A DNA stretch of 64,000 nt from Escherichia coli. Lineage in GTDB: Bacteria > Pseudomonadota > Gammaproteobacteria > Enterobacterales > Enterobacteriaceae. A program made the position numbers. How positions within the stretch are numbered: position 1 is the stretch's first letter; every line of letters begins with the position of its first letter. Positions 36,001 to 39,000 of this stretch are shown here, piece by piece. The DNA is taken from assembly GCF_017348835.2 (NCBI RefSeq), contig NZ_CP071375.1; one strand, given 5' to 3'.

Positions 36001-39000
36001 GTGGGATATGCTCAGGTTCACCCGGGCGGCGTACCGGCATTGTCCGGTACCGGTGCGCGTGCAGGTGATTTAAAAGGGATTAATGTGAAATACCGTTATG
36101 AGTTCACGGATCACCTGGGCGGCATTGTCGCGCTGAGTTATGCATCGGTGAAGAAAAGTGACACGATGAAGACGGGTGAAAATACCTTCCATTATGAAAG
36201 CCTGCGCGGTCGTTATGTCAGTCTGATGGCCGGCCCTGTCTGGCAGCTCAGTGAGCGGGTCAGTCTCTATGGCATGGCCGGGATGGCGTACACCCGCTGG
36301 TCTGACAGTGTTCAGGATTACCGGCGTGATGAAGTGAAACCGGGGTATGTGAAGGAGACCACCACCGCCAGTGATGGCCATACTGCGCGTCATCTGTCGC
36401 CGGCCTGGAATGCCGGGATTCAGTTCAGTCCCGTAGAGACGGTGGTTATTGACCTTGCTTATGAAGGTTCCGCCAGTGGCGACTGGCGCACTGACGGCTT
36501 CATCGTGGGTATCGGCTATAAATTCTGATTAGCCAGGTAACACAGTGTTATGACAGCCCGCCGGTTCAGGCGGGCTTTTTTGTGGGGTGAATATGGCAGT
36601 AAAGATTTCAGGTGTACTGAAAGACGGCACAGGAAAACCGGTAGAGAACTGTACCATTCAACTGAAAGCCAGACGGACCAGCAGCACGGTGGTGGTGAAC
36701 ACGGTGGCCTCTGAAAATCCGGATGAAGCCGGGCGTTACAGCATGGATGTTGAGTACGGTCAGTACAGCGTCATTCTGTTGGTGGAAGGATTCCCGCCGT
36801 CACATGCCGGGACCATCACCGTGTATGAAGATTCTCAACCGGGGACGCTGAATGATTTTCTCGGTGCCATGTCGGAGGATGACGTCCGGCCGGAGGCACT
36901 GCGCCGTTTTGAACTGATGGTGGAAGAGGTGGCGCGTCACGCTGAGGAGGCGAAGAAGAATGCCGGAGAGGCGGAGACGTCAGCGAGGAATGCCGGCATA
37001 TCAGCCAGTCAGGCAGAAGAGAGCGCTGCAAATGCTGACACTTCAGCAGGGGAGGCATCGGAGTCAGCCCGGCAGGCGGCAGAAAGTGCAGCCTCAGCAA
37101 AGCAGTCAGAGGATGCGTCCTCGTCCTCGGCTTCTGCGGCCGCTCAAAAAGCCAGTGAGTCATCACAAAGTGCAGCAGAAGCTGAATTGTCAAGAAAGAC
37201 GGCAGAAAGTGCAGCCGGTAATGCAGCCAGGGATGCAACGACCGCAACAGAAAAAGCCCGGGAGTCAGCAGAAAGCGCACAGTCAGCGGAACAAAGCAGG
37301 ATAGCGGCGGAAGAAGCCGTAAACCGAATCCCCACAGTGGTGGGGCCACCCGGGCCAAAGGGAGAACCGGGGCCCGCGGGTCCTCAGGGGCCGAAGGGAG
37401 ATAAAGGAGAGCGTGGCGACACCGGTCCTGTCGGGGCAACCGGTGAACGGGGACCGGCAGGTGATGCTGGTCCGGCAGGCCCGCAGGGGCCGAAAGGCGA
37501 CAGGGGAGAGCGGGGAGAGACCGGTCTGACGGGAAATGCAGGTCCACAGGGTCCAAAGGGAGATACCGGTGCGGCAGGCCCGGCAGGCCCACAGGGACCG
37601 AAAGGAGAAACAGGTGCGGCTGGCCCGGTGGGGGCAACCGGACCTCAGGGACCGAAGGGCGACCCGGGGGAGACACAAATCCGTTTTCGTCTGGGGCCGG
37701 CGAGCATTATTGAGACAAACAGCCATGGCTGGTTCCCGGATACAGATGGTGCGCTCATCACCGGACTGACCTTTCTTGACCCCAAAGATGCCACACGGGT
37801 TCAGGGTTTTTTTCAGCATTTGCAGGTCAGGTTTGGTGACGGGCCGTGGCAGGATGTTAAGGGGCTGGATGAAGTGGGCAGTGATACAGGCAGAACAGGA
37901 GAATGACATGAACATACTAAAAAAACTTATGCAGCGTCTGTGTGGTTGCGGAAAGCATGATGGCCGTGAACACGTGCAGTCGCTTACAGCACAACTGCGA
38001 CTGGGGCCGGCAGACATCCTGGAGTCCGATGAGAATGGTATTATTCCGGAGCAGGACAGGGTAATCACACAGGTGGTGATACTGGATGCAGATAAAAAGC
38101 AGATACAGTGTGTGGTAAGACCGCTGCAAATCCTGCGTGCTGACGGGAGGTGGGAAAATATTGGCGGGATGAAGTAACCCGACGGATTCACAAAAACCGG
38201 AGTCTGGCTCCGGTTTTTGTTGTCATGTATGGGGGCTGTTTGTTATGACTCCCTGTGTTTGGAATGAATATTTAAATAGGGAGTTTTGTCATGCCGTTAA
38301 CATCAGCTATTGCATCCAATTCATTTTCCACCGGAATGCAGGTTCTTCGTGCTCAAATGGCCGCCAGTGGCGGTGGAGAAATTACAGTAGGCGGGCAGAC
38401 GGTCCGTATCACATATAGTGAAACGGATGGTCGCTTTCTGGCGAGTGGGGGCAATAACAGTTTGCTTTCTGGATTATTACTTACAGGGCTTAATGGTGGT
38501 CCTGAAGCGCTCAGGGATATAATGTTAAGAATGGTTTCAGGTTCAGGTAACACACAATCACATGGTGATATTGAGGGGAAAATATCACAATGTAAGTTTT
38601 CTGTTAATACGGAGAGCCTTCAGTGTCCATCCGAGGCGGTTCGATGCCCAATTATACTGGATAAACCAGAAGAAGGTGTGTTTGTTAAAAATTCAGAAGG
38701 TTCTTTGGTTTGTACCTTATTTGATTCGGTTTCTTTTTCTCATTTGGTTCGCGACGGTGGGAAGCACCCGCTAACACGAGAACCAATAACGTCATCAATG
38801 ATTGTAAGTCAAGAACAATGTATTTATGACCAAACCAAAGGAAACTTTGTCATAAAGGATAAGTGAAATAAATATTACCCAAGCTATATGTTAACTGCCA
38901 GTTGCTTATATGAAATGCTACAGATGTTCAGGGTATAAGGATGTGGTAATTGGTGTACTGGATGCAGCTAAAAAGCATATACAGTGAGTGGTGAGGCCGC

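Follow-up and report, generated by a model that had tools for sequence, protein, structure and literature searches.

The 64,000-nt window of Escherichia coli DNA analysed here (the whole stretch, from contig NZ_CP071375.1) carries a collagen-like phage gene at 36593-37906 on the plus strand. Judging from its sequence, this gene is very probably an intact side (lateral) tail fibre gene of the EPclA type, belonging to the prophage of a lambda-like siphophage. EPclA (enterohaemorrhagic E. coli (EHEC) prophage collagen-like protein A; e.g. ECs2717, ECs2941, Z0982) was described by Ghosh et al. (2012, PLoS One 7:e37872, PMC3368898), is present in about seven copies per O157:H7 genome and represents the commonest EHEC prophage collagen-like protein. 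The fibre itself is an already known, well-characterised family member and a routine near-identical copy of a published protein, and the residual novelty of the locus is limited to an unexplained small partner, an open reading frame (ORF) of 89 aa directly downstream, which was left unexamined in the 2012 paper. The fibre gene and its domains are arranged as follows:

36593-37906, plus strand: side tail fibre gene, probable EPclA type, 437 aa plus stop (ORF with PF08400, PF01391 and PF06820 matches)
36593-36991, plus strand: PfN, N-terminal tail-attachment (collar) domain, residues 1-133 (PF08400, "Prophage tail fibre N-terminal")
36992-37342, plus strand: PCoil, low-complexity Ala/Ser/Glu-rich rod, residues 134-250, 117 aa
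37343-37675, plus strand: collagen domain of 37 uninterrupted G-X-Y triplets, residues 251-361, 111 aa (PF01391)
37676-37903, plus strand: PfC, C-terminal knob, residues 362-437 (PF06820)

Translation from the ATG at 36593 to the TGA at 37904-37906 gives a product of 437 aa, in agreement with the coordinates and length that a preliminary description of this DNA had assigned to a short side tail fibre; the same coding sequence in strain PE164 is annotated in RefSeq as WP_000279009.1. The protein matches PHROG 366 ("tail fiber protein", E = 2e-152). Both terminal Pfam profiles are covered in full, PF08400 by residues 1-133 (E = 3.3e-69) and PF06820 ("Putative prophage tail fibre C-terminus") by residues 363-426 (E = 1.3e-36), and the PCoil between PfN and the collagen tract is composed of Ala, Ser and Glu to 66%, with just 7 Leu, Ile or Val among its 117 residues. 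For the collagen tract, which is matched by the Pfam Collagen family (E = 3.3e-18), we counted G-X-Y triplets by a regular expression. The uninterrupted tract noticed before is real, but it comprises 37 triplets at 37343-37675 instead of about 35 at 37330-37660 and thus lies around 15 nt further right. Pro occupies 18 of the 37 X positions, Asp, Glu, Lys and Arg are plentiful, and the chance of 37 Gly residues in register at the 14% Gly of the fibre is 0.14^37, or about 1e-32. The underlying DNA contains internal repeats of 45 nt and 9 nt and has a G+C content of 70%, compared with 51% for the window.

The assignment to EPclA relies on a direct comparison with the O157 copies, as had been suggested in the preliminary description. 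The window fibre shares 97.5% identity over 437 aa with VT1-Sakai H0004, the fibre gene of Sakai Sp15, from which it differs in 11 residues and which is presumably identical to ECs2941 of Ghosh et al.; this is well above the 90% identity to O157 copies by which EPclA is recognised. The PfN-PCoil-Col-PfC order and lengths also agree with the published values of 437 aa in total, 116 aa for PCoil and 111 aa for the collagen domain, and most O157 copies likewise combine 437 aa with a 111-residue collagen (PMC3368898, Table 2). Both kinds of copy also follow J-lom in lambdoid prophages and are themselves followed by the 89-aa gene. The differences are allelic only, apart from the location of the window copy in a prophage beside potB with an NleG/EspW effector island. 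Close relatives are widespread: the window fibre shares 95% identity with the stf of Lambda h434 imm21, a laboratory phage that forms plaques. The 1.9-kb fibre region matches an E. coli isolate from a pig at 100% identity, reaches 98% or more with O26, O103 and numerous further Shiga toxin-producing E. coli genomes, and has a near-full-length match in 692 of 5426 complete E. coli genomes.

The preliminary description had missed that this architecture has already been published together with its biochemistry. Produced without a partner in laboratory E. coli, recombinant Sakai EPclA is a soluble trimer whose Col domain shows the circular dichroism spectrum of collagen with a melting temperature of 42 °C, while the coil melts at about 52 °C; PfC is the trimerisation module and renucleates the collagen helix after melting (Ghosh et al., 2012), a trimerisation and refolding role that had also escaped notice. 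In electron microscopy (EM), EPclA appears as a dumbbell of 55-62 nm with a hinge between a coil of about 16 nm and a collagen rod of about 30 nm. The trimer, the collagen helix, the coiled coil, trimerisation by PfC and the dumbbell shape have thus been shown by others on proteins of 97% identity, and we infer from the sequence that the window allele forms the same trimer with a collagen triple helix.

With 437 aa compared with the 774 aa of full lambda Stf, the gene might also be taken for a truncated or decayed lambda-type stf, a non-functional pseudogene that lost its distal gp37-like half together with tfa. Such a reading could draw on the lack of orf-314 or Tfa similarity in the window and on the laboratory stf allele of lambda itself, which is frameshifted into orf-401 and orf-314. 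However, the C-terminus of the fibre is a complete, conserved PF06820 domain and 437 aa is the modal length, found in 41 of the 46 complete fibres located upstream of the small ORF in related IMG/VR loci, and for these reasons we regard the gene as intact and not truncated. Each fibre domain is under purifying selection, with ratios of nonsynonymous to synonymous polymorphism (pN/pS) of 0.12-0.54 and a value of 0.14 for the collagen tract in the plus frame, as calculated from 80 IMG/VR loci that were ranked by similarity to the 89-aa protein and are therefore biased towards its relatives. Furthermore, the identical architecture yields a stable trimer in experiment, a viable laboratory phage carries this fibre type, and longer relatives with extra C-terminal domains beyond PfC are not the norm. 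The truncated pseudogene, which the preliminary description had named as the outcome that would overturn an intact short fibre, is hence effectively refuted already, and we consider it the most improbable of all the readings discussed here. Length variation does exist in the collagen tract: in the IMG/VR sample, the tracts measure 45, 108, 111 or 114 residues and the proteins range from 371 to 440 aa. The polymorphism in repeat number, which had been proposed for checking, was already documented by Ghosh et al. (PMC3368898), who reported tracts of 63, 78, 81, 111, 114 and 144 residues, always multiples of three.

A collagen-like protein in a pathogen-associated prophage also raises the question whether it acts mainly as a bacterial virulence factor, i.e. 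as a collagen-like adhesin comparable to Streptococcus Scl1/Scl2 or Legionella Lcl that is expressed by the lysogen for interaction with host cells. This possibility was raised by Ghosh et al. (PMC3368898), the gene adjoins effector genes of the type III secretion system (T3SS), and NCBIfam models for collagen adhesins do match the G-X-Y tract (Lcl with 85.6 bits, SclB with 78.8 bits). These scores, however, cover the repeat alone and lie far under the curated cut-offs of 500 bits for Lcl and 325 bits for SclB. Family scans of the fibre returned only PF08400, PF06820, the collagen repeat and a sub-threshold CarboxypepD_reg match, and no secretion or cell-surface anchoring domain was among them. 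In addition, the N-terminus is a lambda tail-collar domain, the gene follows J and lom within the late tail operon, and the homologue EPclB is visible on virions, so that we consider a main function as adhesin highly improbable. EPclB is the lateral tail fibre of short-tailed Shiga toxin (Stx) phages (933W L0121, Sp5 ECs1228/ORF67, phi24B gp61) and has been seen on virions by immuno-EM and cryo-EM. Its distal Col-PfC part is 97% identical to that of the window fibre, and its 89-aa partner ORF is 92% identical and joined by the same GGAGAATGACATG junction. In contrast, identity drops to 26% in its N-terminal attachment domain, which docks, with six fibres, on the adaptor ring of a podophage, and the protein is longer (645 aa) with two collagen tracts and a Pf2 repeat between them.

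At the tail-proximal end, the window fibre follows lambda. Residues 1-93 are 92.5% identical to lambda orf-401 and to the collar of Ur-lambda gpStf (PDB 9E7M chain Ta, 9MGH), which bears out the lambda-like Stf N-terminus noted before, and identity to orf-401 is still 81% over residues 1-133. In the cryo-EM structure of Ur-lambda (PDB 9E7M/9MGH), a ring of 12 gpStf collar copies surrounds the tail at the gpV-gpM junction, in contact with both proteins, and bears four fibres, each a trimer attached by flexible linkers. A homologue of gpM (E = 1.5e-25 against chains of 9E7M) is also encoded in the window, within an uninterrupted tail gene row V-G-H-M-L-K-I-J-lom, and the late-operon order is that of lambda stf, with J at 32360-35836, lom at 35869-36528 and the fibre gene directly after from 36593. 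By analogy, the window fibre probably docks on the tail as Ur-lambda gpStf does. Both fibres continue from the collar domain into an Ala/Ser-rich stretch, a trimeric coiled coil in lambda and presumably also in the window fibre, and both are accessory fibres that presumably speed adsorption.

The distal parts are entirely different. A collagen helix and the PfC knob take the place of the hinge, the T4 gp37-like six-chain coil and the OmpC-binding tip of lambda, and the window fibre has only about half as many residues. In line with the earlier statement that no obvious tfa follows the fibre, tblastn searches of the 64-kb window with lambda Tfa (best E 7.7) and with orf-314, the distal gp37-like half of Stf (best E 6.1), returned matches at chance level only, without a tfa gene or relic; where lambda has Tfa, the window has a PfC paralogue. 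The collagen and PfC module replaces a gp37-like tip whose folding needs Tfa. Since the recombinant fibre folds without a partner, with PfC trimerising and registering the chains in cis, the absence of a Tfa-type chaperone is readily explained.

The small ORF is the second element of this module, and the preliminary description had correctly placed it between the fibre and an effector island, without recognising it as a paralogue and constant partner of the fibre PfC:

37897-37903, plus strand: Shine-Dalgarno sequence AGGAGAA of the 89-aa ORF, read in the last fibre codons
37908-38177, plus strand: stand-alone PfC paralogue, 89 aa (27-aa leader plus PF06820 domain; PF06820, PHROG 576)

It matches PF06820 with E = 1.1e-36 and, end to end, PHROG 576 ("tail fiber protein") with E = 1.6e-59, and shares 35% identity with the PfC of the fibre itself. 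The pairing of the two genes is constant. The window, Sp5 and the phage 434 region share an identical GGAGAATGACATG junction, the gap between fibre stop and ATG is 1 nt in the window and in all 68 related loci with a detectable upstream fibre ORF (68/68), and the small ORF is intact and 89 aa long in each of the copies recovered from related IMG/VR loci (77/77). In a phage collection, 296 records contain the 89-aa ORF and 296 the fibre PfC, with the same organism breakdown. The ORF accompanies both the EPclA fibres of siphophages and the EPclB fibres of podophages, and beyond E. coli it was found only in Escherichia albertii and Citrobacter rodentium, with 175 clusters among 5.8 billion proteins.

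Selection acts on the protein as well. Over 52 distinct alleles of the biased IMG/VR sample pN/pS is 0.13, and a check on four reference phages chosen for other reasons agreed with it (0.10-0.19); in these four, the amino-acid changes are nearly confined to the leader, with one variable residue in the PfC part (pS about 0.2). Split by region, pN/pS is 0.32 for the leader (37908-37988) and 0.10 for the PfC part. Although the 27-residue leader is otherwise the most variable part, it contains a conserved LCGCGKH motif that is kept even in a shorter homologue from Citrobacter rodentium. Moreover, the tryptic peptides VITQVVILDADKK and ADGTWENIGGMK, both unique to the 89-aa ORF, were identified in purified phi24B virions (supplement, 10.64898/2026.04.10.717836), and the same cryo-EM and proteome preprint flags the 89-aa entry with "Spike or just gp59?".

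Taken together, the 89-aa protein is probably an expressed accessory protein of the fibre. We tentatively suggest, as a possibility short of an even chance, that it serves as a working virion-associated partner of collagen-stalked fibres, i.e. as tip cap, adhesin or registration factor, in the slot otherwise held by Tfa or gp38. In its position and its translational coupling to the fibre, the ORF resembles the downstream fibre chaperones and tip adhesins (lambda Tfa, Mu/P2 Tfa, T2/T4 gp38), and the depositors of Lambda h434 imm21 labelled it "tail fiber assembly chaperone". Unlike these proteins, it lacks sequence similarity to Tfa and is a paralogue of the C-terminal domain of the fibre; it belongs to no known Tfa family, with PF06820 as the only Pfam match and no match in NCBIfam. 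There is also indirect evidence, by analogy to related fibres, that it may not be needed for fibre folding, given that recombinant EPclA folds alone and that the equivalent ORF68 of Sp5 is non-essential. If the suggested role as partner holds true, the 89-aa protein would represent an undescribed class of fibre accessory that originated by duplication of the trimerisation knob of the fibre itself, and this class would be near-invariant across long-tailed (EPclA) and short-tailed (EPclB) phages of attaching and effacing pathogens.

A different explanation was proposed by Mondal et al. for the non-essential ORF68 of Sp5, namely that the ORF is a silent spare-part cassette, a reservoir of PfC that can be recombined onto the fibre tip, rather than a working protein. 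One draft contig in which the collagen tract is fused in frame to the small-ORF PfC would fit this idea, but as the contig begins within the collagen tract, a complete swapped fibre is not demonstrated by it. The ORF has its own conserved Shine-Dalgarno sequence and ATG, retains a 27-aa leader of non-collagen sequence and is never found disrupted in the recovered copies, while the low pN/pS of the PfC part, with its single variable residue among the reference phages, and the tryptic peptides in phi24B virions point in the same direction. We therefore hold the cassette to be unlikely as the primary explanation, at about half the weight that we give to the virion-associated partner, although a role as cassette is possible as a side effect. 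The fusion itself (GCA_038404665.1, contig JAYDZQ010000147, 1-291) joins the collagen tract after GERGPA (window ~37456) to the small-ORF PfC (window ~38011) by a 553-nt deletion at the microhomology GGRCCGGCAG, and its protein has 4 member sequences.

A programmed +1 frameshift that fuses the fibre to the 89-aa ORF (GAA-UGA-C after the Shine-Dalgarno-like AGGAG) was also considered and is unlikely. According to codon-anticodon rules, tRNA-Glu is unable to re-pair on AAU, which speaks against such a shift. The junction peptide TGEDMN, the one looked for, is absent from the phi24B supplement, and no frameshift signal was found at the fibre/small-ORF junction by Mondal et al.

Combining the published biochemistry with the gene arrangement of the window, the fibre is proposed to work as follows. 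Three chains would trimerise, with the C-terminal PfC domains joining first and nucleating the 37-triplet collagen helix of about 30 nm, which a flexible hinge would link to the three-stranded Ala/Ser-rich coiled coil of about 16 nm. The three PfN domains on short linkers, together with those of three other fibres, would build the 12-subunit collar at the gpV-gpM junction, placing the PfC knob as distal tip some 55-60 nm from the tail. There, the knob is presumed to make a first, accessory contact with the cell surface and to speed adsorption before J engages its receptor, and it may well bind a receptor of its own. A Tfa chaperone would be unnecessary because PfC serves as in-built trimerisation and refolding module. 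The fibre gene would be translationally coupled to that of the stand-alone PfC paralogue, whose product would be expressed, conserved and probably associated with fibre or virion, and a strong terminator would end the module ahead of the T3SS effector "moron" genes downstream.

Several points speak against parts of this scheme. The lateral fibres of phi24B point towards the capsid, so that a simple first-contact role is not established even there, and the authors report that MG1655 BamA is not recognised by the fibres of lambda_2B8, whose shaft and tip are related, and name the role of such conserved lateral fibres among the open questions (10.64898/2026.04.10.717836). The phi24B peptides would fit a free small protein and a frameshift fusion equally, and Sp5 ORF68 is dispensable for plaque formation and lysogenisation alike (Mondal et al.). 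AlphaFold2 gave no usable model, neither for the 89-aa protein (10-row alignment, mean pLDDT 49) nor for three copies of the fibre PfC in a single chain with Gly/Ser linkers (29); AlphaFold failed likewise in the hands of the phi24B authors (10.64898/2026.04.10.717836). A sequence search of the PDB with PfC or the 89-aa ORF returned no match. BamA had been considered as receptor of the PfC knob because of the 97% PfC identity to EPclB, long assumed to bind BamA, and was dropped in view of the lambda_2B8 result.

Fibres of this kind are carried by the phages that spread genes for Shiga toxin and T3SS effectors among E. coli strains, and their receptor and host range therefore bear on the rise of new EHEC lineages. 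The C-terminal fibre module is present in over 290 genome records of phages. The ligand of the PfC knob and the role of the small PfC protein are questions for the whole field and not specific for this locus.

The GC-rich repeat DNA also gives rise to long ORFs on the opposite strand, as remarked in the preliminary description:

36816-37676, minus strand: spurious 286-aa antisense ORF over coil and collagen DNA
37283-38191, minus strand: spurious 302-aa antisense ORF over collagen, PfC and small-ORF DNA

Neither of the two is annotated by the NCBI Prokaryotic Genome Annotation Pipeline (PGAP), and we regard both as spurious, since all domain matches and the purifying selection are found in the plus frame. 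An antisense ORF of the same composition-driven kind, "orf206b", lies inside the Ala/Ser-rich part of orf-401 in lambda (NC_001416, 1248-1868 of the compared stretch).

Downstream, the module is closed by a hairpin:

38190-38220, plus strand: hairpin terminator ending the fibre module and late operon, with an A-run before and a T-run after

Its predicted fold has a dG of -25.4 kcal/mol (z = -4.2), and 0 of 200 shuffled sequences fold as well. Further GC-rich terminator-like hairpins with T-runs are present at 35855-35874, directly after J, and at 36555-36576, directly after lom and 17 nt before the fibre start; with these upstream hairpins, expression of the fibre presumably depends on antiterminated late transcription.

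The prophage abuts potB-potA. Over the aligned ~24.6 kb, the window is 99.8-99.9% identical to PE164, the closest complete genome, in which the insertion sequence IS3 (1710-3018 of its compared stretch) splits the tape-measure gene at a point corresponding to window 27418-27421. A prophage rendered defective in the same way was ruled out for the window, as the IS3 is absent and the tape-measure ORF of 1080 aa (26508-29750) is intact.

NleG-family genes start at 38291. According to the annotation of the near-identical PE164 region, the effector island (38291-42351) comprises espW and no fewer than four NleG-family (DUF1076) genes, and a gene for a bfpT-regulated chaperone comes next. Effector genes behind the 89-aa ORF are also seen in the classical laboratory hybrid Lambda h434 imm21 (OM418627.1, stretch 4686-9648), where the 437-aa collagen fibre and the small ORF precede NleB-, NleC- and NleH-like T3SS effector genes in the form of fragments and copies. 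Within the island of the window, the interval that separates the first NleG gene (38291-38866) from the second (39151-39738) contains a decayed duplicate at 38951-39116 (86% identity, with indels and an in-frame stop). It repeats ~100 nt from the end of the 89-aa ORF together with the terminator hairpin and the ~30 nt that follow, which suggests that recombination at the conserved 3' boundary of the fibre module brought in the effector cassettes.

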